Below, piece after piece: positions 2,733 through 20,756 of a DNA stretch of 27,184 nucleotides. Within the stretch, counting starts at the first letter, position 1. Each line of letters opens with the position of its first letter. Location of the stretch: positions 1 through 27,184 of the forward strand of contig CAYXJM010000001.1 in assembly GCA_964465455.1 (NCBI GenBank), read 5' to 3'. A program made the translations under genes and the position numbers. The notes beneath the pieces are model-generated. The model saw only the letters and a list, made by a program, of their open reading frames with translations, did no database searches and was not told where the DNA came from. This DNA is from an uncultured Klebsiella sp. Lineage in GTDB: Bacteria; Pseudomonadota; Gammaproteobacteria; Pseudomonadales; UBA5518.

Positions 2733-4628
2733 TCAGGGCACGTACCACACGGGCGACGAGTAGGCCCGCTCCTGGTGCACCAGCGGTACCCTGGCATCCA
2801 TCTCGACGCCGAAATAGGCGCGGTCGTATGCGGTCCAGCGCGGCGTGGGTATCTCGAGCACGCGCACGTACCAGAACGCCGGCGCGCTGGCGTCGAAATC
2901 GGGGTCCTGCCAGTACGCCAGCAGTTCCGGCGCACCGGACGTGTTGGTGTAGCTCGCGCTCGCCGCGTCCACCGTCGAGGCGACCGCCCGCTCCACGCGC
3001 CCGTCCGGCCCTATGCGGCGCCCATCGGATACGGCGATGTCATAGACGCGCTCGTGCAGCGCGCCGTCACGCGCGAGCCAGCCCTTGACGATCTGCACGC
3101 GATCGAGGTTGGCGCCGCGCGGATCCCGCGCGGCATGGACGAGGAACGCCGGCGCGCTGGCATCGCCCCGTCCGAGCACGCCGCCCATCGGCACGCCGCG
3201 CGCGTAGCCGACTCGCGCCAGGTTCGGGCGGTAGACGTCGGCCGGCGCGAACCCGCGCCCGGCGAAGAGCCGCAGGCGTATGCGCGTCCCCGTCGTGGCG
3301 TAGACTTCGCGCCGCTGGAACGCCTCGAAGATCGCCGCGCGCGTGTTCTCTCGCGCCCAGACGGCGGCGTAGCCGGAGGCGGCCATCTTCCACTCGGGGA
3401 TCTCGAACTCCGGTCGCCCCTGGTGGCGCAGCAGCGGCTGCGACCAGCGCGTCGGCGACGGCTCGGAACGGCTCATCTTGCCCCAGAAATTGTCCTCCTC
3501 GGCCGTCGCGAAGCCCGTGTGCGAGTCCGTGCTGCCGATCATGCCGAAGCGGAACGGATTGACGCCGAGGCGCGCCTGCTGCTGCAGCCCGAGCTTCAGC
3601 GCGGACCGTGCGTACTGGTAGGGCTGCATCGCGTCGGTCTGCATCACGCTGGAACCGAGGTTCGCGAGGTCCCAGGTCTCGTAGTCCGCGAACTCGTCCT
3701 CGGGCGACAGCAGCGGATGGGTCTCGGAGTCGCCCTTGTACTGCGTGACCTCGACCACCGGCTCCCAGCGCTGGCGCCGCTCGGCGTAGTCCCGGTCGAA
3801 GGGCCGCCCGGCGAAGTCCGCGGTGGCGAACATCCGCCCGCCGCTGGTGTTGCTGTTGTGCGGAATGGCGAGCGCCCGCCCGCCCGTTTTCGCCTCGTAG
3901 TCGGCCAGGTAGCGCCACAGCGCCTCGGGATCGGCGCTGTCGTTCGAGGAAAACGGCACCACCGCGCCCGCCTTGTCCGCCCCGTCGCCGAAGATCACGA
4001 CGCGGTGCAGGTTGTCGCCACCCGGCATCGAGCTCCACTCGTAGCCGATCAGCGCCGTGAACCGGCCCGGATCGTTGAAGCGCTCGGCGTTGGCGATTAC
4101 CTCCGCCCACACCGAGCGCTTGAAAGCCTCGCTGCCGATCGCGTCACCCTCGCCCTGCAGCACGTGCACGTAGTCCTCGATGAACTCGGGCGTGACCTCC
4201 CCGCCCTCGCCGAGGAACGAGGCCCAGCGCCTGCCGACCTCGGTGGCCAGCAGGTCCGGGTCCTTCGTGGCCAGCCGCGGGAACAGCCCGAGGTACTCGG
4301 AGTGGTCGGCGACCACGAGGAAATCGAGCGGCGTGCCGAGCTTCAGCGGCATCCCGTTCATGCCGCGCACCACCTCGCCGCGCGCGAAGCGGTAGGCCAC
4401 TTCGGGCGTCACGCGGCGGTTGCCGAGGCTCGCGGCGTCCGGGGACATGCTGGTGTGCAGGTGGGTGTCACCCCACAACAGCAACTCGGGAAAGTCGTCC
4501 GCGACGGCGGGCGAGTAGCTCGCGCGCTCCGCCGCGAGCGCGGCCCCTGCCAGGCACGCAGCGAGGGCCAGCGCCAGCCGCGACGCGGCGCCGGCGCGTG
4601 CGCGACGAATCGACGCGGAAAAAGCCAT
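2733..4628 (-). CDS. DUF3604 family secreted protein, PHP-like metallohydrolase fold (631 aa)
   Basis: N-terminal signal peptide (RLALALAACLAGAALA) and GGGAGGG RBS. Motifs LLWGDTHLHT, LDFLVVADHSE, IPHNSN, EVTQYKGDSETHP, FGMIGSTDSHTG, REVYATTG and C-terminal ERAYSSPVWY are typical of DUF3604. Confidence 0.85.
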   Translation of the reverse strand: MAFSASIRRARAGAASRLALALAACLAGAALAAERASYSPAVADDFPELLLWGDTHLHTSMSPDAASLGNRRVTPEVAYRFARGEVVRGMNGMPLKLGTPLDFLVVADHSEYLGLFPRLATKDPDLLATEVGRRWASFLGEGGEVTPEFIEDYVHVLQGEGDAIGSEAFKRSVWAEVIANAERFNDPGRFTALIGYEWSSMPGGDNLHRVVIFGDGADKAGAVVPFSSNDSADPEALWRYLADYEAKTGGRALAIPHNSNTSGGRMFATADFAGRPFDRDYAERRQRWEPVVEVTQYKGDSETHPLLSPEDEFADYETWDLANLGSSVMQTDAMQPYQYARSALKLGLQQQARLGVNPFRFGMIGSTDSHTGFATAEEDNFWGKMSRSEPSPTRWSQPLLRHQGRPEFEIPEWKMAASGYAAVWARENTRAAIFEAFQRREVYATTGTRIRLRLFAGRGFAPADVYRPNLARVGYARGVPMGGVLGRGDASAPAFLVHAARDPRGANLDRVQIVKGWLARDGALHERVYDIAVSDGRRIGPDGRVERAVASTVDAASASYTNTSGAPELLAYWQDPDFDASAPAFWYVRVLEIPTPRWTAYDRAYFGVEMDARVPLVHQERAYSSPVWYVP

Positions 4629-4664
4629 GGCTTTGCCCTCCCCGTGCGGCTGTCGCGCGCGGTG

Positions 4665-6023
4665 CTATTTCTCGCCCGCGAGATAACGCTCCAGCTCGGC
4701 GTGGAAATGCCGCAGCCGCTGCTCCTGCTCGCCCCAGAGCTGGTGGCGGAAAGCGCGCGAGCGCATGCCCTTCTGCACCACCGGCAGCAGCTCCGAATCC
4801 TGGCTCAGCACCAGCCCGAGGTTGCCGTCCTCGCCGATGCCGAAGTGCTCGCAGGCCGGACGCGTGCGACCGCTGGTGTCGGTGCCCTCGGGCAGTCCCA
4901 TCCAGTCGGGCACCTTGTAGTCCGGATGCTCGACCGGCGCGATCAGCGTCATCGTGTCGTAGTAGAAGCGCTCCGGATCGGTGGGATGCGGCAGGAAGCG
5001 CATCAGGAACACGCCCTCCGGATGACAGCCGATCTGCACGTTCGGGAAGATGCCGGTCGCCCAGCTGTCCGTCAGCTGCCCGTCCACGAAGCCCGAGTAA
5101 TCCAGCCCGAGTGCCGCCGCGCGCTGGCGCTTGGCCCGCTGGACCGCCGCCCGCACCTCGCGCGCCCCCCCCGCGAAGCCCTCCGGATCGATGCCGACAT
5201 CGGCCAGCATCGCACGCAGCCCGTCGTTCATGCTGTCCTGGTCGGCGATGCGCGGCGTCATCTGCCCGATCGGCACGATCATGCGGCTGGCCCCGTTCGG
5301 ATAGAGGTCGCACTGGACCTTGAGATCCGCCATCACCCATCGCGTCTCGGGATGCACCGCGTGCAGGTGATAGGTCTCGTAGAAGGCCTCGATGCCGACC
5401 TTCCAGTTCGCCGCCCACTCCGTGCGCACGTGCCGCACGACCTTCATGCGCTCGATGCGGTAGCCCTCGAGGTAGCCCTCGGGCAGGCCGATGTATTCCG
5501 AGAGCGGCGGCGGGTCCTCGCGCATCGAGACGAAAACCAGGCCCGCGTGCTCCTCGCAGGCCAGCGCGACCAGTCCCGGCTCGTGGCACACGACCTCCTC
5601 GCGGAAGGTCTCGCGATCGGTGATCGCGCTCAGCTTGCCCTGCAGGTCGAACTTCCACGAATGGAACGGGCAGATGAAGCGCATGCGGCTGCCCCGCTCG
5701 GCACGAACCAGGCGACTGCCGCGATGGCTGCAGACGTTGTAGTAGGCCCGCACCCCCGTCTCCGTGCGCACCACGATGATCGATTCGTCACCGATGTCGA
5801 ACAGGAAGTAGTCGCCGACCTGCGGGATGTCCGAGCTGACGCCCGCGATCAGCCACACGCGCGGCCACAACTGCTGCCACTCGCGCTGCATGAACTCGCG
5901 CGTGAAATAGCGCGACTTGTCGTAGCTGCCGGTCCCGTTGTCGATGTACGGCTGCTTGGCCTCGAGCGAACCGGCCGGTGCAGCCGGATTCACCACGATG
6001 CCCGTCTCGTAGTCGAACTTCAT
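4665..6023 (-). CDS. Rieske non-heme iron oxygenase alpha subunit (452 aa)
   Basis: Start at ATG 6023 (MKFDYETG) with GAGGAGG RBS. Rieske motif CSHRG...CPFHSW, mononuclear iron motif NWKVGIEAFYETYHLHAVH and C-terminal Asp in QDSELLPVVQKG. Confidence 0.92.
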   Translation of the reverse strand: MKFDYETGIVVNPAAPAGSLEAKQPYIDNGTGSYDKSRYFTREFMQREWQQLWPRVWLIAGVSSDIPQVGDYFLFDIGDESIIVVRTETGVRAYYNVCSHRGSRLVRAERGSRMRFICPFHSWKFDLQGKLSAITDRETFREEVVCHEPGLVALACEEHAGLVFVSMREDPPPLSEYIGLPEGYLEGYRIERMKVVRHVRTEWAANWKVGIEAFYETYHLHAVHPETRWVMADLKVQCDLYPNGASRMIVPIGQMTPRIADQDSMNDGLRAMLADVGIDPEGFAGGAREVRAAVQRAKRQRAAALGLDYSGFVDGQLTDSWATGIFPNVQIGCHPEGVFLMRFLPHPTDPERFYYDTMTLIAPVEHPDYKVPDWMGLPEGTDTSGRTRPACEHFGIGEDGNLGLVLSQDSELLPVVQKGMRSRAFRHQLWGEQEQRLRHFHAELERYLAGEK

Positions 6024-6070
6024 GAGATCCTCCTCGTGTTGCCGGTGCGATACGGCACTCGCCGCCCGCC

Positions 6071-6502
6071 TCAGTCGCGACGCAGCGAGGCCACGGCCGT
6101 TCCCGGCGCCAGCACCTCGTCGTTCTGGTTCAGAATCGCCACCTCGATGCTCACTTGCGCGCGCTCGCGATCGACTGCAAGTATCCTGCCGGTCGAGCGC
6201 AGCGTGTCGCCGATGAACGCCGCGCGCCGGTTCGAGTACTCGATCTCGACCAGACTGCCGTGCTCGCCCAGCCACTCGACCACGCACTGGTGCAGCCAGT
6301 CGCCGAGCAGCGGCCCGGCCATCACCAGGCCGGGATAGCCCTCGACGTCGCGCGCATACGGGTAGTCGAAATGGATCTTGTGCGCGTTCCACAGCGCAGC
6401 GTTGTAGAGGAACAGCTGGATCGTGTCGGGCCGGAATTCGCGCGTGGGCAGCGCCTGTCCCGCCGCCAGCGTGTCGATGTCCGGCCGGGCCATCTCGCTC
6501 AT
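6071..6502 (-). CDS. MaoC/hot-dog dehydratase, C-terminal-half type (143 aa; HTD2/mesaconyl-C4-CoA hydratase-like)
   Basis: The ATG at 6502 overlaps the upstream TGA (ATGA). Motif QLFLYNAALWNAHKIHFDYPYARDVEGYPGLVMAGPL resembles the N-x-H-x-I-H-[YF]-D...EGYPGLVVHGPL motif of the Meh/Ich/HTD2 hydratases. Confidence 0.8.
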   Translation of the reverse strand: MSEMARPDIDTLAAGQALPTREFRPDTIQLFLYNAALWNAHKIHFDYPYARDVEGYPGLVMAGPLLGDWLHQCVVEWLGEHGSLVEIEYSNRRAAFIGDTLRSTGRILAVDRERAQVSIEVAILNQNDEVLAPGTAVASLRRD

Positions 6503-6954
6503 CGCAGGATCCTCGTCGTCGTTTCGGTCACCACGGGCTCGCCGCGCTCGTTCTCGACCGTCATCACGATCTCGTAGAAGATCAGCGGTCCGGAGGATCC
6601 TTCCTTCTGCCAGATGTTCGTCAGCGTGCGGCTGGCGAGCAGCACGTCTCCGGGACGTATCGTGCGGTGATAGGCGATCTTCAACCCACCCGCCATCGCG
6701 CGCTTCAGGGGAAATTCGGGCAGCAGCGCGTCGATCGCCACGCCGTCGGGGCTCAGCTGCTCCGGTTCCGGCACGGGCCAGAACAGCGCGAGGTAGAACA
6801 TCGGCGGCGCCTCGTCGCCGTCGAGGTACTTGCGCAGCCGCTGCCCGGTGGCGATCGCGTACTTGCGGATGTCCTTGCGCGTCACCAGTTCGAGCTGCGG
6901 CGGCGCCTTGCGCCCGATGTTGGCCAGCAGTTCCGGCGTCAGCAGGCTGCCCAT
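6499..6954 (-). CDS. MaoC dehydratase N-terminal-half (FAS1-like dehydratase) protein (151 aa)
   Basis: ELVTRKDIRKYAIATG...EAPPMFY...LSPDG...LLPEFPLKRAMAGG...IRPGDVL...KEGSSGPLIF matches the pattern of the MaoC_dehydrat_N / N-terminal hot-dog half. Confidence 0.8.
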   Translation of the reverse strand: MGSLLTPELLANIGRKAPPQLELVTRKDIRKYAIATGQRLRKYLDGDEAPPMFYLALFWPVPEPEQLSPDGVAIDALLPEFPLKRAMAGGLKIAYHRTIRPGDVLLASRTLTNIWQKEGSSGPLIFYEIVMTVENERGEPVVTETTTRILR

Positions 6955-6957
6955 CGT

Positions 6958-8499
6958 TCACTCCCCTGCATACAGCTTGCGCAGTTCGCGCTTGAGAATC
7001 TTGCCGGTCGGCGCCTTGGGCAGGCTGTCGACGAACGCAACCGACTTCGGCTTCTGGTACGACGCGAGGTGCCGGCGCGCCTCGTCGATGATCTCGCGCT
7101 CGCTCGCGTGCATCCCCGGCTTCAGCACCACCACGGCCTTCACGACCTCGCCCCATTCGGCGTCGGGAATGCCGATCACCGCGCACTCCAGCACGGCGGG
7201 GTGGCGATGGATCGCGTTCTCGACCTGTGTCGAGTAGATGTTCTCGCCGCCGGAGATGATCATGTCCTTGGCGCGATCCACGATGTAGACGTAGCCCGAC
7301 TCGTCCCACGTCGCGATGTCGCCGGTCCACATCCAGCCGTCGCGGATCGTCTGGGCCGTGAGGTCGGGACGGCGCCAGTAGCCGAGCATGTTCGCGTCCG
7401 AGCGCACGATGATCTCGCCGGAGCTCTGCCCGTCCCGCGATACCGGCCGGCCACCCGGGTCGACCACGCGCACGCTGGTCACGAATCCCTCGCGACCGCA
7501 GCTGCGCAGCCGCTCGGGGCGGATGCCGCGCACGGCCTCGGCGTGATCCTCCTGCGACAGGAACGTCATGGTCATGCCCTCGGTCTGCCCGTAGCCCTGG
7601 ATCAGCGTGCAGGGAAACATCTCCAGCGCGGATTTCACCACCGAGACCGGCATAGGCCCGCCGCCATACTGGATGTTGCGCAGGCTGCGCAGGTCGAAGG
7701 ACCCGAAGTTTTCCACCGCCATCATCCAGTTCAGCATCGTGGTGATGCCGAGGAAGGCCGAGACTTGCTCCTCCTGGATCAATTCCAGCGCCTGGCGCGC
7801 CTCGAAGTTGACGAGCACCAGGGGACAGCCGTGGGCCATGTAGTTCATGGCCAGCGCGACCGGAATGTGGAACATCTGCCCGGTGAGCATGTACACGTCG
7901 GACGGCACGATGCGCTCGGCGACCGTCTGGTTCAGCATGCCCATGTAGATGCTGCGGTGCGAATGCAGCGCGCCCTTGGACTCCCCGGTGGTGCCGCCGG
8001 TGTACAGGATCAGCAGCGGATCGTCGCCGCCGACCGAGTCGCTGAGCGCCGGTTCCGCGTCGCTCGCCGCGCCGAGCAGGGCCTCGTAGCTGCCGTCGGA
8101 TGCGGCGCCGAACTCGAACCAGTGCGGCAGGTCCAGCTCGCGCTGCAGCGCCTCGCGCTCGGCACGGAAATCGGCCGAGGACAGCAGCGCCGCCGGCTCT
8201 CCCTCGCGCAGGATGCGGGCCATCTCCGGCACGGCGAGGCGCCAGTTCAGCGGTTGCGCCACCAGTCCCGCGCGGCCGCAGGCGTAGAACAGCTCCAGGT
8301 ACTCGATGCAGTTCTTCGCCAGGATGGCGATGCGCGCACCGCGACCGACACCGGGCAGCGCGCTGAGCCCGTTGGCCAGGCGCCGCACCCGCGCGTCGAG
8401 TTCGCCGAACCCGATGCGGCGCCCGTTGGGCACGTCGATGATCGCCGTGCGACCCGGTGCGAGCGCGGCGTGCTTGGCGGGTATCTGGCCGATGTTCAT
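6958..8499 (-). CDS. Acyl-CoA synthetase / AMP-binding ligase (513 aa)
   Basis: Adenylation motifs ILYTGGTTGESKGA, QGYGQTEG, WMWTGD, DRAKDMIISGGENIYSTQVE and LPKAPTGKILK. Confidence 0.95.
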   Translation of the reverse strand: MNIGQIPAKHAALAPGRTAIIDVPNGRRIGFGELDARVRRLANGLSALPGVGRGARIAILAKNCIEYLELFYACGRAGLVAQPLNWRLAVPEMARILREGEPAALLSSADFRAEREALQRELDLPHWFEFGAASDGSYEALLGAASDAEPALSDSVGGDDPLLILYTGGTTGESKGALHSHRSIYMGMLNQTVAERIVPSDVYMLTGQMFHIPVALAMNYMAHGCPLVLVNFEARQALELIQEEQVSAFLGITTMLNWMMAVENFGSFDLRSLRNIQYGGGPMPVSVVKSALEMFPCTLIQGYGQTEGMTMTFLSQEDHAEAVRGIRPERLRSCGREGFVTSVRVVDPGGRPVSRDGQSSGEIIVRSDANMLGYWRRPDLTAQTIRDGWMWTGDIATWDESGYVYIVDRAKDMIISGGENIYSTQVENAIHRHPAVLECAVIGIPDAEWGEVVKAVVVLKPGMHASEREIIDEARRHLASYQKPKSVAFVDSLPKAPTGKILKRELRKLYAGE

Positions 8500-8512
8500 G
8501 TGGCTTCAGGCC

Positions 8513-8926
8513 TCAGTAAGGCAGGTCCAGCTCGATGCGGCGCGTCGCGAGCACCCAGCGACCGTCCCTGCGCACGACGCGATCGCGGTACAGCGCCGTG
8601 GAGATCAGCCGTATCGCGCCGTTCTCGGTCCCGAACAGCGTCAGGTTCGACACCACCTCTGCCTCGGCCTCGCCGCCCGATGCGAAGAAGATATTGGAGA
8701 CCACGTGCCGGCGCTTGTCCGTCTGCGCGGCGATGGAGTTGCGCATCAGCCCCATGATCGCGTCGTGGCCGAGGAACGGCGCGATCGGCGGCTGGCCGGC
8801 AATCTGCATGTGGAACTCCGCGTCGGCGGCGAAGCAGGCTCCCAGCATGTCGAGGTCCTGCTCGTCGAGCGCGTACGCGGCGCGGGAAAGCAGTTCGTGT
8901 ATCTCGAGCTTGGCGGCGGTGTCCAT
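8513..8926 (-). CDS. NTF2-like / SnoaL_4 family protein (137 aa)
   Basis: Pattern LEIHELLSRAAYALD...CFAADAEF...RRHVVSN...YRDRVVRRDGRWVLATRRI; GGGAG RBS. Confidence 0.85.
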   Translation of the reverse strand: MDTAAKLEIHELLSRAAYALDEQDLDMLGACFAADAEFHMQIAGQPPIAPFLGHDAIMGLMRNSIAAQTDKRRHVVSNIFFASGGEAEAEVVSNLTLFGTENGAIRLISTALYRDRVVRRDGRWVLATRRIELDLPY

Positions 8927-8947
8927 GTTCCCTGTCTCCCGTGAAGG

Positions 8948-10849
8948 TCATTCGATCGCGAACGCGAGCAAGACATTGCCCGGCATGTGCCCGTAGATGC
9001 CGTAACCGGACATCACGTACATCATGCCGTCCTTGAACACCGGGGCGGCGCCGCCGCCGAGCGAGCCGCCTCTCGCCGGCACCCCGCCGAGCGCCTGGAA
9101 CTCGCGCGCCGTGTCGAAGGACCAGATCACCTCGCCGCTCGCGCTGTCGTGCGCCCGCAGCCACCCGTCCATCGAGCCCGCGAACACCGCGCCAGGAATC
9201 GAGGCGATCGCGCCCGATATGCCCGGGCTGCAGAACTCGCGTCCCGCGCACACATCCGGCGCGGGCTGGCTCCAGCGCAGCTGGCCGCTGCCGGCGTCGA
9301 GCGCGTACAGGCCGGGCTTCGCTTCGCCGGGCCAGCGCGGCCCGCCGAAATAGTCCGAGATCGGCACGAAGACCGTGTCGCCCTCGGCACTCATGCCGAA
9401 GTGCACGCCGCCCTGGATTCCGCCGCGCCCCAGCTTGCGCTGCCACAGCACTGCCCCCGTGTCGGGATCGAGCGCGTGCACCTCCCCGGATTTCTGCCCG
9501 GCCACGAGGATGTCCTTGCCGGCCGATGTCGTCACCAGCATCGGCGCCGCACCGAAATCGAAGTCCGGGCCGTCCTCCGGCGGACAGTTGGTGCGATCGA
9601 CCGCCTCGCAGCCCATGTTCCAGGCGTCGCCCGCCGTTGCCTGCCACGCCCATGCCGTGGAGCCGCTGTCGATATCGAACGCTATGATCGCGTCGCTGCG
9701 TTCGTTCGCCGGCGAGGAATAGTTCTCGCCGGTGCCGACATAGAGTCGGCGGCGCTTGGCATCGACCACCGGGGTGCCCCACACCGGCGCCCCGGAGGGC
9801 GCGATGCGCGGGGTGCCGTGCGCGTTCACGTCGACCTGTGCCGGCGTCTCCGCGATGGTGTGAGCGGTCCACAGCCGCTTGCCCGTGGCTGCGTCGTAGG
9901 CAGCAACGCCGCCACGGAAGGTGCAGCACGCGTACGCGGGATCGGCCGCCGCGGTCACTTCGAGGGAGGACAGCGCCACGTAGAGCCGGTCCTCGAAGCG
10001 CACCGGGGACGCGGTGATCGTGAGGCTGTGGTGATCGTCGGGACGATCACGCCAGCGCAACTCGCCGCTCTGCGCGTCCAGCGCGTAGACGTTGCCCGTC
10101 AGGTCGCCGAAATACACCCCCGGTCGCGCGCCGGCGTCACCTGCCGTCCAGCCGTCGAGCAGGATGCCGGTGCGCACCTCGGCGGCGGCCTTGAAGGTCC
10201 AGCGCACGCAGCCGCTGCGCGCATCGAGCGCGTAAACCGTGCCGTCATGGCTGCCCATGAACAGCGCGCCGCCGCCGGTCACCGGCTGCGAGCGCGCGCG
10301 GATCGCGTCCGGAAACGCGAAGCTCCACTTCAGTGCGAGCTTCGGCACCTCGGCGCGCGCGAAGCCCGCCACCTGCTGCGGGTAGAAATGGCTGTTGCCG
10401 CGATCGACGCCCCAGCCGAGCGCATCGGGCGGCGCGGCGAAGTCGAACTTGCTGCTGCCGGCGGCGCAGCGCATCTCCGCGGCCAGCGCCACCGGTTCCG
10501 CGAAGGGGCGACCCGTGACGTATTCGGCGACCGCGCGCCGCTCCTCCGGCGAGAGCTTCGCGCCCTGCTCCTGCATCGCGCCGGACTCCAGCGCCGCGAC
10601 CACCCGGTGTGGCGCCATCAGGCCGATGATGGTGCGGTGCGGGGCACGCGTCACCTGGCCCTCGTGGCATTGCATGCAGTGCAGCGCGTAGACGCCCTGC
10701 CCGGCCACCGCCGGCGCGGAGGGTGCGGGCGCATCGGAGACCGCCGTGCTCGCCGGCTCCGGCACCGGGGCCTCGTCCCGTCCGCAGCCGGCCAGCAACA
10801 CGGGCAGCGCCAGCGCTGCCACCATCGAACGCAGGGAGAGCGCCATCAT
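8948..10849 (-). CDS. PQQ-dependent dehydrogenase with N-terminal cytochrome c, lipoprotein (polyvinyl-alcohol dehydrogenase-like quinohemoprotein, 633 aa)
   Basis: Lipobox LLAG-C and heme motif CMQCH. Multiple PQQ beta-propeller repeats (GTVYALDARSGCVRW, GNVYALDAQSGELRW, GEVHALDPDTGAVLW) plus PVA-DH-family-like CCTFRG, GAPVWGTP, DAWNMGC, DFDFGA and GGVHFG motifs. Confidence 0.85.
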   Translation of the reverse strand: MMALSLRSMVAALALPVLLAGCGRDEAPVPEPASTAVSDAPAPSAPAVAGQGVYALHCMQCHEGQVTRAPHRTIIGLMAPHRVVAALESGAMQEQGAKLSPEERRAVAEYVTGRPFAEPVALAAEMRCAAGSSKFDFAAPPDALGWGVDRGNSHFYPQQVAGFARAEVPKLALKWSFAFPDAIRARSQPVTGGGALFMGSHDGTVYALDARSGCVRWTFKAAAEVRTGILLDGWTAGDAGARPGVYFGDLTGNVYALDAQSGELRWRDRPDDHHSLTITASPVRFEDRLYVALSSLEVTAAADPAYACCTFRGGVAAYDAATGKRLWTAHTIAETPAQVDVNAHGTPRIAPSGAPVWGTPVVDAKRRRLYVGTGENYSSPANERSDAIIAFDIDSGSTAWAWQATAGDAWNMGCEAVDRTNCPPEDGPDFDFGAAPMLVTTSAGKDILVAGQKSGEVHALDPDTGAVLWQRKLGRGGIQGGVHFGMSAEGDTVFVPISDYFGGPRWPGEAKPGLYALDAGSGQLRWSQPAPDVCAGREFCSPGISGAIASIPGAVFAGSMDGWLRAHDSASGEVIWSFDTAREFQALGGVPARGGSLGGGAAPVFKDGMMYVMSGYGIYGHMPGNVLLAFAIE

Positions 10850-14027: not shown

Positions 14028-16358
14028 ATGAATCGACACACTGCAGGCCTCAACCGACTCAGCCTCGCGATCATGCTCGCGGGCACCGGCATCACCGCAC
14101 CCGCTGCGCTCGCCCAGGGCAACGCCGAGGGGCTGGAGGAAATCACGGTGACCGCTCGCAAACGCGAGGAGAACATCCAGGACGTGGCGATCGCGGTGAC
14201 GGCGCTGAGCCAGACCGAGATCGAGCGGACGTTCGCGCGCGACCTGAAGGACCTCGCGAGCATGGCCCCCAACCTCGTGATCGACGACACCTCGCAGGGT
14301 CCGGGCGGCGTCGCGGCCATCTACATCCGCGGCGTGGGCGTCGCCGACGTGGAAAAGAGCTTCGACCCGGCGGTGGGCGTCGTGATCGACCAGGTGTTCA
14401 TCGGCGCCAACACCGGTTCCATACTGAAGAGCCTGGACATCGGCCGCATCGAGGTGCTGCGCGGCCCGCAGGGCACCCAGTTCGGGCGCAACACCATCGG
14501 CGGCGTGATCAACGTCGAGCGCACCAAGCCGACCGGCGTGTTCGGAGGCAAGATCCGCGCCGGCTACGGCGACTACGACACCTACAACGTCGAGGGCCTG
14601 CTGAACTTCCCGATCACCGACACCCTCGCCGCCAAGCTGACCGCGACCAAGCGCGAGCAGCAGGAAGGCTACTACGACAACGTGGTAACCGGCCACGACA
14701 TCGGCCAGGAGGACTACGAGCAACTCGGCGCCAACCTGCTCTTCTCTCCCACCGAGTCGATCGAGCTCGAGTACACCTACAACTACGAGAACACCGACCA
14801 GGACACGCCGCCGCTGCTGAACAACGGCCAGCCGCGCCACCTGTTCTGCTTCGCCTACGGCTATTGCGCGCCGTCGGAGGACTCCACGATCACGGGCGAC
14901 CGCTACAAGGTGGCGAGCAAGGCGATCCGGCCGCCGAAGTACTACGACCTGCAGACGCACGTCAGCTCGCCGGACGACGCGATCGATACGAATTTCGACG
15001 CGAACTTCAACACCGACACCCACATCGTCGAGCTGCGCTGGGACGTCAGCGACGACTACCGCTTCGACGCGGTCTACGGCCACTGGAATTCCTCCGAGAC
15101 CGTGTTCACCGACTGGGACGGCACCCCCGAGATGCTGTACCACACCGACCGGCCCGGCAACTGGGAGCAGGACAGCGTTGAACTGCGCATCACGAACGGC
15201 GGCGACGACCCGTTCAGCTGGGTGGGCGGCGTGTTCTTCTGGAAGTCCAGTTTCGACATCGAACTGCGCAGCTACATCGGATTCGCGGGCGACGTGACCG
15301 GCGACGGCAACCCGGACATCCTCGACATTCCGCAGTACGGCAAGCAGGACGTCGACTCGCGGGCCGTGTTCTGGGAGGGCGACTACGCCTTCACCGACAA
15401 GTGGACCCTGACGCTGGGCGGGCGCTACACCGAGGACGAGAAGCAGTCGGCGGCTCGCGGCCAGGTCGACACCAGCGTGCCCACCCAGGCCGGGGTGCCC
15501 GTTGCGTTCGCTCCCGGACTCAACGGCGACCCCGACGACGACTGGAACCAGTTCACGCCCAAGGTCGGCATCAAGTACCAGATGACCGACGACGCGATGC
15601 TCTACGCCACGTGGACGAACGGCTACCGCAGCGGCGGTTTCAACACGCGCGTGAACTCCTACAGCGAGGCCGTCACGCCCTACAACGAGGAGACCGTCGA
15701 GAGCTACGAGGTCGGCTTCAAGACCGCCTGGTGCGACAACACGGTGCGCCTGAACGGCGACGTCTTCTACATGAAGTACGACGACAAGCAGGAGGAGCTG
15801 CACCTGCCCGACACGCTGAGCGGCACCGGCCAGAAGACGGTGGTCGCCAACGCGTCCACCGCCGAGATGAGCGGCGTGGAACTCGAGCTGCAGGCCGAGC
15901 CGACGGACGGCCTGTACCTGCGGGCCAACGCCGCTTACCTCGACGCGTCCTACGACGAGTTCGAGTTCGACGACGACGGCGATCCCGCGACGCCGCTGGT
16001 GGACTACAGCAAACTCGATTTCCGTCGCGCGCCGGAATGGACCGGCAACGTCGACGCGACCTACGAGTGGGACGTCGGCGGCAACACGATGTGGGCGCGC
16101 GTGGCCTACCACTACCTCGGCGAGCACGAGACGAACTTCGACAACTCGCCGGAACTGCACAACGACGCGCAGCACCTCGTGGACGCCTCGATCAACTACG
16201 ACTGGGGCAAGACGCGCTTCAGCCTGTTCGGGCGCAACCTGACCGAGGAGGACGGCTACATGATCGGCTACGACGTGGCGGGGATCTGGTCGTACTCCGC
16301 GGCTCGCCCGCCGCGCACGTGGGGCATCGAGGTCACGCACGAGTTCGGCGGCGAGTAA
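14028..16358 (+). CDS. TonB-dependent outer-membrane receptor (776 aa)
   Basis: AAGGAG RBS, signal peptide, TonB-box-like LEEITVTARKREE, plug motif IEVLRGPQGTQFGRNTIGGVIN, NGYRSGGFN, and C-terminal PPRTWGIEVTHEFGGE. Confidence 0.95.
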   Translation: MNRHTAGLNRLSLAIMLAGTGITAPAALAQGNAEGLEEITVTARKREENIQDVAIAVTALSQTEIERTFARDLKDLASMAPNLVIDDTSQGPGGVAAIYIRGVGVADVEKSFDPAVGVVIDQVFIGANTGSILKSLDIGRIEVLRGPQGTQFGRNTIGGVINVERTKPTGVFGGKIRAGYGDYDTYNVEGLLNFPITDTLAAKLTATKREQQEGYYDNVVTGHDIGQEDYEQLGANLLFSPTESIELEYTYNYENTDQDTPPLLNNGQPRHLFCFAYGYCAPSEDSTITGDRYKVASKAIRPPKYYDLQTHVSSPDDAIDTNFDANFNTDTHIVELRWDVSDDYRFDAVYGHWNSSETVFTDWDGTPEMLYHTDRPGNWEQDSVELRITNGGDDPFSWVGGVFFWKSSFDIELRSYIGFAGDVTGDGNPDILDIPQYGKQDVDSRAVFWEGDYAFTDKWTLTLGGRYTEDEKQSAARGQVDTSVPTQAGVPVAFAPGLNGDPDDDWNQFTPKVGIKYQMTDDAMLYATWTNGYRSGGFNTRVNSYSEAVTPYNEETVESYEVGFKTAWCDNTVRLNGDVFYMKYDDKQEELHLPDTLSGTGQKTVVANASTAEMSGVELELQAEPTDGLYLRANAAYLDASYDEFEFDDDGDPATPLVDYSKLDFRRAPEWTGNVDATYEWDVGGNTMWARVAYHYLGEHETNFDNSPELHNDAQHLVDASINYDWGKTRFSLFGRNLTEEDGYMIGYDVAGIWSYSAARPPRTWGIEVTHEFGGE

Positions 16359-16408: not shown

Positions 16409-16443
16409 AGGCTTTCCGCGCCGGGCGCGGAAAGCCTTTTTTT
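16409..16443 (+). terminator. Rho-independent terminator after TBDR 2
   Basis: AGGCTTTCCGCGC-CGG-GCGCGGAAAGCCT perfect 13-bp stem running into a T7 tract. Confidence 0.88.
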
Positions 16444-16489: not shown

Positions 16490-17074
16490 ATGACAACGCA
16501 GGACCCGCTGCAGCGACTGATCGACAGGAGCGCCATCGAGGACGCAATCGCGACCTATGCACGCGCCCTCGACCGCATGGACGAGAAGCTGCTGCGCTCC
16601 GTCTTCCATCCCGGATCGCGGCACGCGCACTACTTCGAAGGCCCGTCCTCGGACCCCGCGCTTCCCTCGAAGCCCGGAGCGCCGCTCGATTTCGTCGCCT
16701 TTGCGATGGACGTGCTGCGCACCCACTCGCGCACGCACCACCAGCTCGGCCAGATGCTGATCGAGTTCGAGAGCGACACCGTGGCCTTCGCCGAGACCTA
16801 TTTCACCGCCCATCACCGCATGCGTGCGATCGGCGACCGGCTCGCGGGCTCCGCGGCCTGCGACACCGAGATGGACTACTTCGTCGGAGGCCGCTACATC
16901 GACCGCTTCGAGAAGCGCGCCGGCGCGTGGAAGATCACGCACCGCACCGGCACGACCGACTGGACCCGGCTCGAGGCGCCGTCTTCCCAGGGCTTCGGCG
17001 CTATCGCCGACGCGCAACTGGGCAAGCGCGGACGCAAGGACATGGTCTACCGTTGCCGCCAGCTCTACCGCTAG
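16490..17074 (+). CDS. NTF2-like / SnoaL_4 family protein (194 aa)
   Basis: ATG 16490 with GGAG RBS. LIDRSAIEDAIATYARALDRMD...VFHP...THHQLGQ...ETYFTAHH...GGRYIDRFEKRAGAWKITHR. Confidence 0.85.
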   Translation: MTTQDPLQRLIDRSAIEDAIATYARALDRMDEKLLRSVFHPGSRHAHYFEGPSSDPALPSKPGAPLDFVAFAMDVLRTHSRTHHQLGQMLIEFESDTVAFAETYFTAHHRMRAIGDRLAGSAACDTEMDYFVGGRYIDRFEKRAGAWKITHRTGTTDWTRLEAPSSQGFGAIADAQLGKRGRKDMVYRCRQLYR

Positions 17075-17123: not shown

Positions 17124-18863
17124 ATGACCAGCAGACCCGATACCGCATCCCGCCGGCGCATCCTGAAGGGCGCGGCCCTGACGCTCGGCGCCGGGGCGCT
17201 CGCCTCGGGGCCCGCGCGTGCCGCCGAGCAGCACTGGGACCACGAGGCGGACATCGTCGCCGTGGGCAGCGGGCTCGGCGCCGCGACAGCCGCGGTGACG
17301 GCGCGCCAGAACGGCGACAGCGCGATCCTCCTCGAGAAGCTCCCGTTCTTCGGCGGGACCTCGGCCAAGACCGTCGGCGTGATCTGGTGCCCGAACAATT
17401 TCACGCTGCGCGCCAAGGGCATCGACGACCGCAGGGAAGATGCGCTGCGCTACATGGCGCGCTACTCCTACCCCGAGCTCTATTCGGCCGAAGCGCCGCG
17501 GCTGGGGCTCGGCGAGCACGCCTACGCGATGCTCGAGGCCTTCTACGACAACGCCGCGCGCGCCACCGAGAGCCTGCGCGACTCGGGCGCGCTGAAGCTC
17601 GCCGAATGGCGCATGTTCCACCTCGACCGCTCGGCGACCGACTACCTCGACAACGTGCCCGAGAACCGCGTCCCGACCGGCCGCGCCCTCGGCACGCTCG
17701 GCGCCGACGGCAAGCTCGGCACCGGGCGCGACATGATGGAGCAGATGGCCGCGGCGCTGAAGGCCCGCGACGTCCCCGTGCTGCTCGGTCACCGCGCCAC
17801 GAAGCTGGTGCGCAACGACGCCGGGCGCGTGATCGGCCTGGAAGCCGACAGCAACGGCAAGACCGTGCGGATCCGCGCCCGCAAGGGCGTGGTGTTCGGC
17901 ACCGGCGGATTCGCGCACAACCTCAACGCGATAGCGAACTACCAGCGCAACTCCCTGTACGGTTCCTGCGCCCTGCCCGGCGCGACCGGAGACTTCATCG
18001 ACATCGCGGGCGCCATCGGGGCCCGTCTCGGCCAGCTCGCCGGCGCGTGGCGCTGCCAGGTGGTGCTGGAGGAGGCCCTGCAGAGCCGCGCGCTGGCCGC
18101 AGGCGTGTTCTTCCCGCCGGGCGACTCGGTGCTGCAGGTCAACCGCTACGGCGTGCGCGCCGTCAACGAGACGCGCAACTACAACGACCGCGGCGAGATC
18201 CACGGCACGTTCGATCCGACGCGCGCCGAGTATCCGAACCAGCTGCTGTTCATGATCTACGACCAGCGCACGGCGGAGGCCTACGCGGGAATCTACCCCC
18301 TCCCGGCCAGGCCCGGGGCAGCGCCCTACGTGCTCTCGGCACCGACGCTGGAGGATCTCGGCAAGAACATCGCGGCGCGGCTGCAGACACTCGCCGCGAA
18401 GACGGGGGACTTCACGCTCGACGCGGCGTTCGCGAAGAACCTCGCCGACACGGTGAAACGCTTCAACGGCTTTGCGCGCAGCGGCAAGGACGGGGACTTC
18501 GGTCGCGGCGCGGCGGCATACGACAGCGAGTGGCACCAGGCCTTCTCGCCGATGCGCAAGGACAGCCCGTGGCCGCCCAACCCCATGCCCAGCATCACGA
18601 TGCACCCGCTGCGCGACGAGGGCCCCTACTACGCCACGATCCTCGCCGCCGGCGCGCTCGACACCAACGGCGGACCGGTGATCGATGCGCGCGCGCGGGT
18701 GCTGGACACCGCCGACCGTCCGATCGAAGGGCTGTTCGGGACCGGCAACTGCGTGGCCAGCCCCTCGGGCCGGGCCTACTGGGGGGCCGGGCATCCGCTG
18801 GGGATCTCGCTCACCTTCGGCTATATCGCGGCCAACACCGCCCACGAGAACGCGCGGGTCTGA
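17124..18863 (+). CDS. Tat-exported FAD-dependent oxidoreductase, 3-ketosteroid Delta1-dehydrogenase / flavocytochrome c flavin-subunit family (579 aa)
   Basis: ATG 17124 with AAGGAG RBS. Tat signal SRRRILKG...ARA, FAD motif VAVGSGLGA, LEK...GGTSAKTVGVIWCPNN, GTGGFAHN, TNGGPVIDARARVLD...IEGLFGTGN and C-terminal YWGAG.PLG..LTFGY (KstD-like YxGxG). Confidence 0.85.
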   Translation: MTSRPDTASRRRILKGAALTLGAGALASGPARAAEQHWDHEADIVAVGSGLGAATAAVTARQNGDSAILLEKLPFFGGTSAKTVGVIWCPNNFTLRAKGIDDRREDALRYMARYSYPELYSAEAPRLGLGEHAYAMLEAFYDNAARATESLRDSGALKLAEWRMFHLDRSATDYLDNVPENRVPTGRALGTLGADGKLGTGRDMMEQMAAALKARDVPVLLGHRATKLVRNDAGRVIGLEADSNGKTVRIRARKGVVFGTGGFAHNLNAIANYQRNSLYGSCALPGATGDFIDIAGAIGARLGQLAGAWRCQVVLEEALQSRALAAGVFFPPGDSVLQVNRYGVRAVNETRNYNDRGEIHGTFDPTRAEYPNQLLFMIYDQRTAEAYAGIYPLPARPGAAPYVLSAPTLEDLGKNIAARLQTLAAKTGDFTLDAAFAKNLADTVKRFNGFARSGKDGDFGRGAAAYDSEWHQAFSPMRKDSPWPPNPMPSITMHPLRDEGPYYATILAAGALDTNGGPVIDARARVLDTADRPIEGLFGTGNCVASPSGRAYWGAGHPLGISLTFGYIAANTAHENARV

Positions 18864-18867
18864 GCCT

Positions 18868-19260
18868 ATGCACGCTATCCGGCGCCTCCTCCTGGCGGGT
18901 CTGGTCCCGGCGCTTTGCGCGCCCGGCCTGCATGCCGCGGACACGAGTTTCAGCCAGCAGGTGCTGCCGCTGCTGAACAGCCACTGCGTCATCTGTCACA
19001 TGCCGGGCGCCGCGCAGGCGGAGCTCAGCCTCTACCCCGATGCCTGGGCGGCGCTGGTGAACCAGCCCTCCACCCAGAGCGCGTTGCCGCGCGTCAAGCC
19101 CGGTGATCCCGACGGCAGCTATCTCTACCGCAAGCTCGCCGGCACCCATCTCGACGCCGGCGGCAGCGGCGAACCCATGCCGTTCCAGCGCGAGCAGCTG
19201 GCGCCGGCCGACCTCGCGCTGGTCCGCGACTGGATCGCGGCGGGCGCGCCGAACAACTGA
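18868..19260 (+). CDS. Small periplasmic monoheme cytochrome c (Planctomycete cytochrome C-like, 130 aa)
   Basis: ATG 4 nt after the flavoprotein stop. Signal peptide, SFSQQVLPLLNSHCVICH heme motif, VKPGDPDGSYLYRKL, candidate axial Met in EPMP, and LVRDWIAAGA. Confidence 0.8.
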   Translation: MHAIRRLLLAGLVPALCAPGLHAADTSFSQQVLPLLNSHCVICHMPGAAQAELSLYPDAWAALVNQPSTQSALPRVKPGDPDGSYLYRKLAGTHLDAGGSGEPMPFQREQLAPADLALVRDWIAAGAPNN

Positions 19261-19274
19261 AGAGGAGATCCCCG

Positions 19275-19754
19275 ATGAGCAACACCGACGACCTGGTCCG
19301 CTCGCTGCTGGCGCGCGTGGACGAACTCGAGAGCCGCAGCGCGATCCGCGACCTCGTGAGCGATTACTGCCTCGGCTTCGACAACCACGACTGGGAGCGC
19401 TTCGTCGCGATCTGGCACGAGGATGCGGTGTGGGAGATCGGGCCTCCCTTCGGCACTTTCCACGGGCACGCGGGCATCCGCAAGGCCGTCTTCGAGATCC
19501 TCTACCCGTTCTGGCGCGAATCGCATCACCTGTCGACGAACCTGCGCATCGCGTTCAGCGACGCGGACCACGCGCACAGCGTCTGCAACGTCGACTGCAT
19601 GGGCGCCTCGGTAGAGGACGTCGTGCAGATGGTCGGCGCCACCTACACCGACGATCTCGAGCGCCGTGACGGGGTGTGGAAGATCGCGAAGCGCACGGTC
19701 ACGATCCACTACTTCAACCCCATGCCCGGCCTCGTCATGAGCGCACCGGGCTGA
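19275..19754 (+). CDS. NTF2-like lyase, LinA/BaiE-like dehydratase or dehydrochlorinase homolog (159 aa)
   Basis: GAGGAG RBS. SRSAIRDLVSDY...D36...IWHEDAVW...GT..G..G...LYP...ESHH85.TNLR...TD..ERRDGVWKIAKR140...YFNPMPG aligns by eye with LinA along its length. Confidence 0.85.
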   Translation: MSNTDDLVRSLLARVDELESRSAIRDLVSDYCLGFDNHDWERFVAIWHEDAVWEIGPPFGTFHGHAGIRKAVFEILYPFWRESHHLSTNLRIAFSDADHAHSVCNVDCMGASVEDVVQMVGATYTDDLERRDGVWKIAKRTVTIHYFNPMPGLVMSAPG

Positions 19755-19766
19755 GGGCCGCGGGAC

Positions 19767-20756
19767 ATGGACGCGCGCACGGACTGGCTCGCCCGCGGCG
19801 CCGAGGCCGCTCTCGATCCGGAATTGCCCATCTGCGATCCGCACCATCACCTGTGGATCTATCCGGACAACCGCTACCTGCTCGCGGAGTTCCTCGCCGA
19901 CGCCGGCGGCGGCCACCGCATCGAGCGCACGGTGCACGTCGAGTGTGCCATGTTCTACCGCGACGGAGGCGCCGAGGAGCTGCGCCCGGTCGGCGAGACC
20001 GAGCGCGTGCACCAGCTCACCGAGGCGACGCAGGCGACGTCGACGCGCGTCGCTGCCGGCATCGTGGGACTCGCGGACCTGCGCCTCGGCGCTGCCGTCG
20101 CACCGGTGCTCGCGGCGCACCGCGCGGCAAGTCCGCGCTTTCGCGGCGTGCGTTTCGGCACCGCGCGCGACGACAGCGCGCAGTTGCACCCCTCTCACAC
20201 CAGGCCGGCGGCGCTGCTGATGCAGCAGGCAGACTTCCGCGCCGGCCTGCGCTGCGTGGCCGAGGCGCGCCTCGTCTTCGACGCGTGGATGTATTTCAGC
20301 CAGCTGCCCGAGCTGCACGAGATGGCGCGTGCACTGCCGGAGCTGCGCATCGTGCTCGACCATGCCGGGGGGCCGGTCGGCATCGGTGCCTACGCGGGAC
20401 GCCGGCAGGAAGTCTTCGCCGCCTGGCACGCGCACATGCGCTCACTCGCGGAGTTGCCGAACGTGATGGTGAAACTGGGCGGGCTCACGATGACCATGGC
20501 CGGCTTCGGCTGGCACAAGCTGCCCGAGCCACCGTCCTCGACGACCCTCGCCGAGGCCATGCGCCCCTACTTCCTTGCCTGCATCGAGCTGTTCGGCGTG
20601 CAGCGCTGCATGTTCGAGAGCAACTTTCCGATGGACCGCGTGTCCTGCTCCTACACCGTGCTGTGGAACGCCTTCAAGCGCGTCACGGAGGGCTTCAGCG
20701 ACGACGAGCGGCGCGCCCTGTTCCACGACAACGCGGTGCGCGCCTACGCGCTGTGA
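19767..20756 (+). CDS. Amidohydrolase family 2 protein, possible lactonase (329 aa)
   Basis: ICDPHHHLW metal-site motif, FRGVR, VFDAW, IVLDHAGGP, NVMVKLGG and RCMFESNFPMD. Confidence 0.88.
   Translation: MDARTDWLARGAEAALDPELPICDPHHHLWIYPDNRYLLAEFLADAGGGHRIERTVHVECAMFYRDGGAEELRPVGETERVHQLTEATQATSTRVAAGIVGLADLRLGAAVAPVLAAHRAASPRFRGVRFGTARDDSAQLHPSHTRPAALLMQQADFRAGLRCVAEARLVFDAWMYFSQLPELHEMARALPELRIVLDHAGGPVGIGAYAGRRQEVFAAWHAHMRSLAELPNVMVKLGGLTMTMAGFGWHKLPEPPSSTTLAEAMRPYFLACIELFGVQRCMFESNFPMDRVSCSYTVLWNAFKRVTEGFSDDERRALFHDNAVRAYAL

Follow-up and report, generated by a model that had tools for sequence, protein, structure and literature searches.

LinA, the gamma-hexachlorocyclohexane (gamma-HCH, lindane) dehydrochlorinase of Sphingobium, provides a textbook example of an enzyme activity that arose anew within decades of a synthetic pesticide's release. 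Other lyases share its NTF2-like fold, among them BaiE, the bile-acid 7alpha-hydroxy-3-oxo-delta4 dehydratase (PDB 4LEH, 4L8P, 4L8O), in which Y30 acts as general acid on the 3-oxo group while H83 and D35 form the base dyad (review PMC12065433). A His-Asp dyad combined with a tyrosine oxyanion hole is a common theme among NTF2-like lyases (PMC9942872). Here we describe a LinA-like SnoaL_4 gene at positions 19275-19754 of a 27,184-nucleotide stretch of DNA ("the window"), which is the entire contig 1 (CAYXJM010000001.1) of a gammaproteobacterial metagenome-assembled genome (MAG) of 3.47 Mb in 735 contigs. Given the homology, fold, residue conservation, gene linkage and phylogeny that we observed, we give slightly better than even chances to the explanation that this gene encodes a cofactor-free NTF2-fold lyase of the LinA-like SnoaL_4 branch, which would act on an oxo-alicyclic intermediate from the adjacent KstD-like desaturase.

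The gene and its translation start site lie as follows.

19275..19754, + strand: LinA-like SnoaL_4/NTF2-fold protein, 159 amino acids (aa), without signal peptide (Pfam SnoaL_4 92.8 bits, LinA homology).
19262..19267, + strand: Shine-Dalgarno-like GAGGAG, 7 nt 5' of the ATG at 19275 (read from the sequence).

The open frame was read from its first ATG, and its match to Pfam SnoaL_4 (PF13577, NTF2-like superfamily; cut-off 24 bits) aligns residues 16-141 with positions 1-126 of the hidden Markov model (HMM). The G+C content at third codon positions (GC3) is 92.5% in a window of 69% GC, and by composition the gene is native to its host. The possibility that the frame is a by-product of high GC was ruled out by the GC3 value, the ribosome-binding site, the Pfam score and the existence of hundreds of homologues.

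The preliminary description of this DNA had proposed a full-length LinA homologue from a hand count of about 56 identical residues in about 145, which proved accurate. BLASTP against LinA of S. indicum B90A (translated from plasmid pSRL1) aligned the two proteins over their full length, including the C-terminal arm, with 57 of 149 positions identical (38%, E 8e-38); the corresponding figures were 36% for a UT26-like LinA and 40% for a relative of LinA from a metagenome. The motifs read by eye (SR.AI.DL.SD, IW..DA.W.I, TNLR, ERRDGVWK..KR and YF.P..G...PG) reappear in the HMMER and BLAST alignments. So does the proposed residue mapping in the BLASTP alignment, where the LinA dyad D25/H73 falls on D36/H85, R129 on R140 and K20 on Y31. 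Conserved residues of the protein comprise Y31, D36, W53, H85, N89, Y124, D126 and R140, with F147, P149, G152 and P158 in the C-terminal arm. In a sequence search of the PDB, the three best matches were LinA entries (E 6e-30 to 1e-28), with alignments running from residue 12-14 to the last residue, and the next match followed at E 8e-7. An AlphaFold2 model built from a 34-sequence family alignment (mean predicted local distance difference test score 96.1) superposed on LinA with template-modelling (TM) scores of 0.87-0.88 and root-mean-square deviations of 1.2-1.4 Å over 147 columns (3A76: TM 0.88, 1.2 Å). The preliminary description had taken 20-25% as the identity to LinA expected of any SnoaL_4 protein. 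The window's other, generic SnoaL_4 protein is 20% identical to LinA, and by this measure the similarity of the LinA-like protein is far above the generic level.

We then asked where the protein stands among the natural relatives of LinA. A word-index search with LinA returned only relatives of at least 67% identity, mostly LinA variants and fragments, and HMMER was used for the distant ones. An exhaustive HMMER search with the UT26-like LinA against 1.84 billion 50%-cluster representatives gave 136 matches at E<=1e-3. After LinA fragments, the top representative was P0163 (44% identity), which is 76% identical to an NTF2 gene beside IS6100 on plasmid pISP0 of Sphingomonas sp. MM-1, a degrader of HCH; P0165 came next, followed by P0166 and P0168, both of which share 64-67% of their residues with the window protein. 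One further sequence, P0164 (55-57% to LinA), was disregarded, as it looks like a noisy read-derived LinA. With its representatives among the best non-LinA matches, the window's family is, by this ranking, among LinA's nearest natural relatives, in keeping with the expectation that it would not lie far from LinA.

Identity to LinA was 36-40% for the window protein, 41-46% for the pISP0 clade, 39-48% for the sphingomonad chromosomal clade and 20% for the window's generic SnoaL_4 paralogue. In a maximum-likelihood tree of 51 sequences (LG+C20+F+G4), LinA joined the pISP0 clade with support 100/97, and this group joined an alphaproteobacterial, mainly sphingomonad clade of 20 rows with support 99/97. 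The window gene lay in the next group outward, a separate and mainly gammaproteobacterial one with 18 rows (89/82). A tree constrained to put LinA in the gammaproteobacterial group lost 19.3 log-likelihood units (approximately unbiased test, p 0.04; the group was set after the tree had been seen, and the p value is merely indicative). LinA may be nested in the alphaproteobacterial clade or be sister to it. On the tree, the closest natural relatives of LinA are thus the sphingomonad sister group and not the window gene. The base composition agrees with the tree, with 52.9% GC for linA and 53.8% for the pISP0 paralogue, as against 65.6% for the window gene. The preliminary description had seen in the window gene an ancestral-type relative of LinA; this was right in kind, but the description fits the neighbouring sphingomonad clade, with which LinA groups. 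As one part of our overall explanation, we lean towards a window gene that is a natural cousin of LinA, neither a lindane enzyme nor LinA's direct ancestor.

The proteins nearer to LinA share much with the window protein. Those of the Sphingomonadales clade are 50-60% identical to it, and the pISP0 NTF2 protein (WP_015449273) is 44% identical; both have the same Y/D/H/R/Y/D set and the SDYC.GFD motif. Unlike the window protein, they group with LinA, and their operons have no Tat (twin-arginine translocation) flavoprotein. At greater identity we saw a single intermediate-distance relative of LinA, a 141-aa protein encoded at L086:608-1033 on a 1.1-kb contig of Joint Genome Institute (JGI) metagenome 3300048997. 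It is 72-76% identical to LinA but has His where LinA has D25, and its residue at position 20 is Leu.

The family to which the window protein belongs is large. A word-index search of 5.8 billion proteins returned 756 homologues of the window protein at E<=1e-5, the best 120 of which are all at least 69% identical to it, and 74 loci emerged from a scan that took one genome per species. Copies of 63-86% identity occur nearly all in gammaproteobacterial MAGs, under several labels (Steroidobacteraceae, Woeseiaceae, Lysobacterales/Xanthomonadales, Wenzhouxiangellaceae), and copies of 50-60% identity mainly in Sphingomonadales (Novosphingobium, Caenibius, Polymorphobacter and a MAG of the Chol11 species). 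Judged by these searches, the gene is not rare and represents a large uncharacterised environmental family. Nearer to its host, it was present in 5 of 15 same-genus genomes searched and in none of 25 other genomes of the order searched; it is an accessory gene. The MAG holds nine SnoaL_4-like matches to the query.

Many of the best 120 of the 756 homologues carry the automatic JGI name "gamma-hexachlorocyclohexane dehydrochlorinase", and others are named as a dioxygenase small subunit; both names are likely over-annotations by similarity. Taken at face value, the first name would make the window protein a dehydrohalogenase on natural organohalogens, or one promiscuous on HCH. The LinA dyad and the R129 equivalent are conserved, and active LinAs tolerate change at position 20, where type 2 LinA has Q20 and the K20Q mutant loses only about 40% of its activity (PMC3507683). 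The window protein shares the dyad, the R129 equivalent, the fold and the C-terminal arm with Sphingobium LinA (PDB 3A76, 3S5C, 5KVB), yet it lacks the LinA-type pocket of K20 (or Q20), L21, V24, F/Y68 and the TIEGIG loop. In their place it has Y31, C32, F35, W80, C104 and a one-residue insert (EIGPPFG; GPPFG), differences that are fixed in the natural family. Moreover, LinA is flanked by linX and IS6100, whereas the window gene is partnered with a Tat flavoprotein and has neither IS6100 nor other lin or dehalogenase context, and its composition is native. In line with the preliminary description, which had seen no IS elements or other lin genes, neither a transposase nor a further lin-type gene came up in Pfam scans of the window's main open reading frames (ORFs). 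The family is also widespread in MAGs that have no link to HCH, and the JGI name is a transfer by similarity rather than evidence. We regard this alternative as very improbable.

Residue conservation points to a catalytic constellation that is general to the subfamily and not peculiar to any one activity. An alignment of 34 natural LinA-like sequences shows no variation at Y31, D36, F43, W47, W53, A71, H85, N89, G110, Y124, D126, W135 or R140. Within the catalytic set, Y31, D36, H85, Y124 and R140, but not D126, are equally fixed in a second set of 62 sequences (34 gamma-clade, 28 alpha-clade). The tyrosine at LinA position 20 is kept in both pISP0-type sequences, while LinA variants carry K, Q or L there. 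Among 89 diverse full-length SnoaL_4 representatives matching LinA, 73 have the Y/D/H triad; Arg at 129 and Tyr at 113 (LinA numbering) are each present in 77. Within the subfamily the triad is thus the default, from which LinA departs.

This bears on the comparison with BaiE, since the preliminary description had called the active site BaiE-type. It was correct that a tyrosine accompanies the dyad where LinA has Lys or Gln, and the term is chemically reasonable; but the triad is not diagnostic, and by its distribution the Y/D/H(+R) set is not BaiE-specific and gives no sign of a BaiE-like specificity. The likeness to BaiE lies in the SnoaL_4 fold, in a place downstream of a flavin desaturase and, as far as coordinate offsets and spacing can show, in a Tyr-x4-Asp...His arrangement. 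The relationship is remote and not one of orthologues: the single window sequence did not match BaiE at E<10 in the PDB search, the family profile did so at E 5e-4 to 8e-3, and structural alignment gave 16-17% identity, although the fold of BaiE aligned over its full length with the AlphaFold2 model (TM 0.81-0.85). Y31 and D36 fall on BaiE Y30 and D35 by HMM coordinate offsets rather than by a displayed residue alignment (profile position taken as window residue minus 2, and 4LEH chain index as native residue plus 19, an assumed tag). A MAG of the Chol11 species has 13 SnoaL_4 genes in its genome, and three BaiE-length candidates among its SnoaL_4 proteins gave no match to BaiE in the PDB sequence search, so that Hsh2, the other bile-acid dehydratase of the BaiE kind, was not identified among them.

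Two other lyases share the fold and the His-Asp/tyrosine theme. LdpA (diarylpropane lyase) aligned with Foldseek TM scores of 0.78-0.84 and scytalone dehydratase with 0.66-0.69, but their identities of 11-20%, their different chemistry and context and, for LdpA, a greater length set them apart. Scytalone dehydratase (3STD/1IDP), which the preliminary description had listed for comparison, came at Foldseek ranks 39 and 42 with 11-12% identity, and by sequence and structure the window protein is not one of its kind.

Ketosteroid isomerase also has an NTF2-like fold, and a second alternative is that the window protein is an allylic isomerase of this kind, which would shift a beta,gamma enone to an alpha,beta enone, or the reverse, around the KstD-like desaturase with no leaving group. 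A tyrosine oxyanion hole with a carboxylate/His base would be enough for such a 1,3-proton shift, the gene constantly adjoins that of an enone-forming flavoprotein, and the phmmer matches in the PDB include one entry named as a putative delta-5-3-ketosteroid isomerase, although its E of 0.17 is insignificant. However, the closest characterised relatives, LinA and then BaiE, LdpA and scytalone dehydratase, are all His-Asp elimination or lyase enzymes, and the invariant R140 and D126 suggest the handling of a polar leaving group or a carboxylate. We consider an isomerase quite unlikely.

Gene linkage gives the lyase reading its proposed substrate. The preliminary description had placed the gene directly behind a KstD-like flavoprotein/cytochrome pair in a catabolic cluster, and the surrounding features agree with it.

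14028..16358, + strand: TonB-dependent receptor (Pfam Plug and TonB_dep_Rec_b-barrel; an 88% homologue lies at the same position in locus L003).
16409..16437, + strand: 13-bp GC-rich hairpin with T-run, after the TonB receptor gene (terminator scan, pattern match).
16490..17074, + strand: SnoaL_4 gene, 194 aa, without signal peptide, head of the operon (Pfam 6e-20).
17124..18863, + strand: FAD_binding_2 flavoprotein with Tat signal (SRRRILKG...ARA/AE), KstD / 4-oxocyclohexanecarboxylate-desaturase-like (Pfam 3.6e-43).
18868..19260, + strand: signal-peptide protein, 130 aa, with a single CVICH haem-c motif (translation).
19767..20756, + strand: Amidohydro_2 protein (lactonase/decarboxylase-type), 12 nt 3' of the LinA-like gene (Pfam 1.4e-38).

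The closest NCBIfam models of the flavoprotein are KstD and ChcC1, with matches under their cut-offs. The CVICH protein, which had no Pfam or NCBIfam match, is the probable electron acceptor of the flavoprotein, and the LinA-like gene begins 14 nt past its end. Uptake of the substrate into the periplasm is the likely task of the TonB-dependent receptor. Its gene appears to lie outside the transcription unit, which would begin past the hairpin, though the total of hairpin and T-run sites in the region is not above shuffle expectation. The amidohydrolase has a weak NCBIfam match to L-fucono-1,5-lactonase and a homologue downstream in six related loci. The contig also encodes a CoA ligase, two short-chain dehydrogenases/reductases (SDRs), MaoC- and enoyl-CoA hydratase-type hydratases, an acyl-CoA dehydrogenase (ACAD) gene pair, an SCP2-type thiolase with an HMGS-like partner, a Rieske oxygenase, a DUF3604 protein, a pyrroloquinoline quinone/haem dehydrogenase and a second TonB receptor. 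This gene content marks the contig as a cluster for the catabolism of a carboxylated alicyclic or steroid-like compound.

The window has three SnoaL_4 genes in all, at 16490-17074(+), 19275-19754(+) and 8513-8926(-). The first of them, which is not one of the nine matches in the MAG, also bears Y/D/H/R/Y/D at the LinA active-site columns, and its gene is kept in L003, the closest related locus.

The flavoprotein gene is a conserved neighbour. Twenty-five gamma-clade loci extend at least 2.5 kb upstream of the LinA-like gene; in 24 of them the flavoprotein gene lies directly upstream on the same strand, and a Tat motif is found in 20. A CxxCH ORF stands between the flavoprotein and LinA-like genes in 14 of these loci and was not found in the other 11, so the small cytochrome is not a fixed component of the module; ahead of the flavoprotein there is usually an AMP-ligase. 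The operon of the inspected sphingomonad loci follows a divergent TonB receptor and reads SDR - acyl-CoA dehydrogenase - LinA-like - alpha/beta hydrolase - old yellow enzyme (OYE) - Baeyer-Villiger monooxygenase (BVMO), with an alternative order of SDR - LinA-like - SDR in the clades closer to LinA. A flavin alpha,beta-desaturase thus precedes the LinA-like gene in both clades, as a Tat flavoprotein in the gamma clade and as an acyl-CoA dehydrogenase in the sphingomonads. We saw the sphingomonad operon in L055, L061, L042 and others, at about 3900-10200, with a LinX-like SDR, and it is carried by MAGs of Chol11 (a bile-salt degrader species) and of Caenibius. Its identification with the pdc progesterone BVMO cluster of Caenibius tardaugens was rejected, as the published cluster is different and smaller.

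The dyad, the tyrosine and the constant desaturase partner together lead us to propose an E1cB-type (conjugate-base) elimination on a carbonyl-activated ring, which would be consistent with the 1,2-elimination that LinA performs on a cyclohexane ring. H85, oriented by D36, would act as the base, and Y31, probably with help from Y124, would polarise the substrate carbonyl. The reaction would most likely convert a hydroxylated cyclic enone to a dienone by dehydration, although the same residues could instead shift an allylic double bond in an isomerisation. The substrate would be a steroid-, terpenoid- or naphthenic-acid-like oxo-alicyclic intermediate made by the Tat-exported KstD-like flavoprotein, which would hand its electrons to the small cytochrome c. 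A homotrimeric state, with the C-terminal arm holding the subunits together as it does in LinA, BaiE and LdpA, is probable. This logic would parallel that of the bile-acid pathway, in which BaiA (an SDR) is followed by BaiCD (a flavin desaturase) and BaiE (a SnoaL_4 dehydratase).

Several observations weigh against this proposal. The flavoprotein and the cytochrome are exported, but the LinA-like protein has no signal peptide; if it is cytoplasmic, it would meet a different substrate pool from its exported partners. Judged by its distribution, the catalytic set is generic to the subfamily and cannot tell dehydratase, isomerase and hydratase apart, and the His of BaiE is matched by spacing only (49 versus 48 residues). 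The gene downstream varies among related loci (amidohydrolase, SDR or CoA-transferase), so the pathway is not fixed. Finally, a full-text literature search found no paper on the LinA-like family.

The mismatch in export could be removed if the LinA-like protein were a partner subunit of the Tat flavoprotein that folds in the cytoplasm, hitch-hikes to the periplasm on the twin-arginine signal and acts on or stabilises the desaturase. The absence of its own signal peptide would suit such a role, as would its position next to the flavoprotein gene (or to the intervening haem-motif ORF) in nearly every gamma-clade locus and the frequency of the Tat motif. LinA itself was reported as periplasmic "without molecular processing", according to the title of Nagata et al. 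1999 as cited in PMC5144681, and hitch-hiking would offer an ancestry for this signal-less location. The proposed interaction, however, is read from gene order, and the sphingomonad clade nearest LinA pairs with a cytoplasmic-type acyl-CoA dehydrogenase, so that the trait would not be ancestral to LinA. We find a subunit role distinctly improbable, and the lyase acting on the product of the flavoprotein remains our preferred explanation for the window gene.

The origin of LinA is better approached through the sphingomonad loci. The gene upstream of linA on pSRL1 (L001:209-949) is annotated as glucose 1-dehydrogenase, and by position and family it is the linX-type SDR, which is always found next to linA and which PMC4478539 describes as a linC-like sequence accompanying it. 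The LinX protein is 57-62% identical to SDRs beside natural LinA-like genes and 32-36% identical to the SDRs of the window. The natural SDRs compared were the following.

L085:1273-2025 and L085:2582-3331: SDRs beside P0163.
L055:3862-4677: SDR of a sphingomonad.
L061:3922-4674: SDR of a sphingomonad.

In all five of five sphingomonad genomes, the best match of LinX (about 288 bits, 57-59% identity) is by its coordinates the SDR inside the LinA-like operon, and the runner-up reaches at most 175 bits and at most 45% identity. On the contig of P0163, an SDR directly adjoins the LinA-like gene, and a divergent TonB receptor stands beside them in the manner of the sphingomonad loci. These matches suggest a natural SDR-(ACAD)-LinA-like operon as the common source of linX and linA, captured as a pair; the literature searched contained no statement to this effect. 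No paper describing natural LinA homologues or a linX-linA origin turned up either, in a literature coverage that is partial and does not prove novelty, and the Chol11 proteome preprint has no mention of SnoaL/NTF2 proteins of the LinA-like type.

Plasmid pISP0 of Sphingomonas sp. MM-1 carries, at L002:8004-8447, a second LinA-like gene beside IS6100 and a truncated SDR. Its protein, with the ancestral Tyr at position 20, shares 43% of residues with LinA and 44% with the window protein; the GC content is as low as that of linA, at 53.8%. This gene could be a captured but unconverted relative.

A joint reading would connect both clades. LinA-like SnoaL_4 proteins would be a widespread natural family for elimination on alicyclic rings, always associated with an SDR, a flavin desaturase or both; the sphingomonad pair of LinX-like SDR and LinA-like gene would have been captured by IS6100, with the change of the oxyanion-hole Tyr to Lys or Gln giving lindane degradation; and the gamma-clade version would be co-exported, without a signal, with the Tat flavocytochrome. 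We offer this reading as a speculation that is unlikely to hold in all its parts. If it were true, the puzzling location of LinA in the periplasm would have a natural precedent in the co-export of the gamma-clade protein.

Our results place LinA among well-populated natural relatives with a conserved catalytic constellation, in which position 20 of LinA is the outlier. This position thereby offers a concrete mutational path, Tyr to Lys or Gln, that can be followed in both directions. For the ancestry of LinA, the sphingomonad SDR-(ACAD)-LinA-like operon is a better starting point than the window gene, since it also holds the one SDR that stands out as the best homologue of linX. Among metagenomic annotations as "gamma-HCH dehydrochlorinase", hundreds are probably wrong, which affects surveys that use lin genes as markers of HCH degradation potential. 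From its gene order and export signals, the module of Tat flavoprotein, cytochrome c and NTF2-fold lyase is an uncharacterised periplasmic catabolic unit that is common in gammaproteobacterial MAGs. The conserved pairing with the Tat flavoprotein and the linX lead are the parts of this analysis most worth following.

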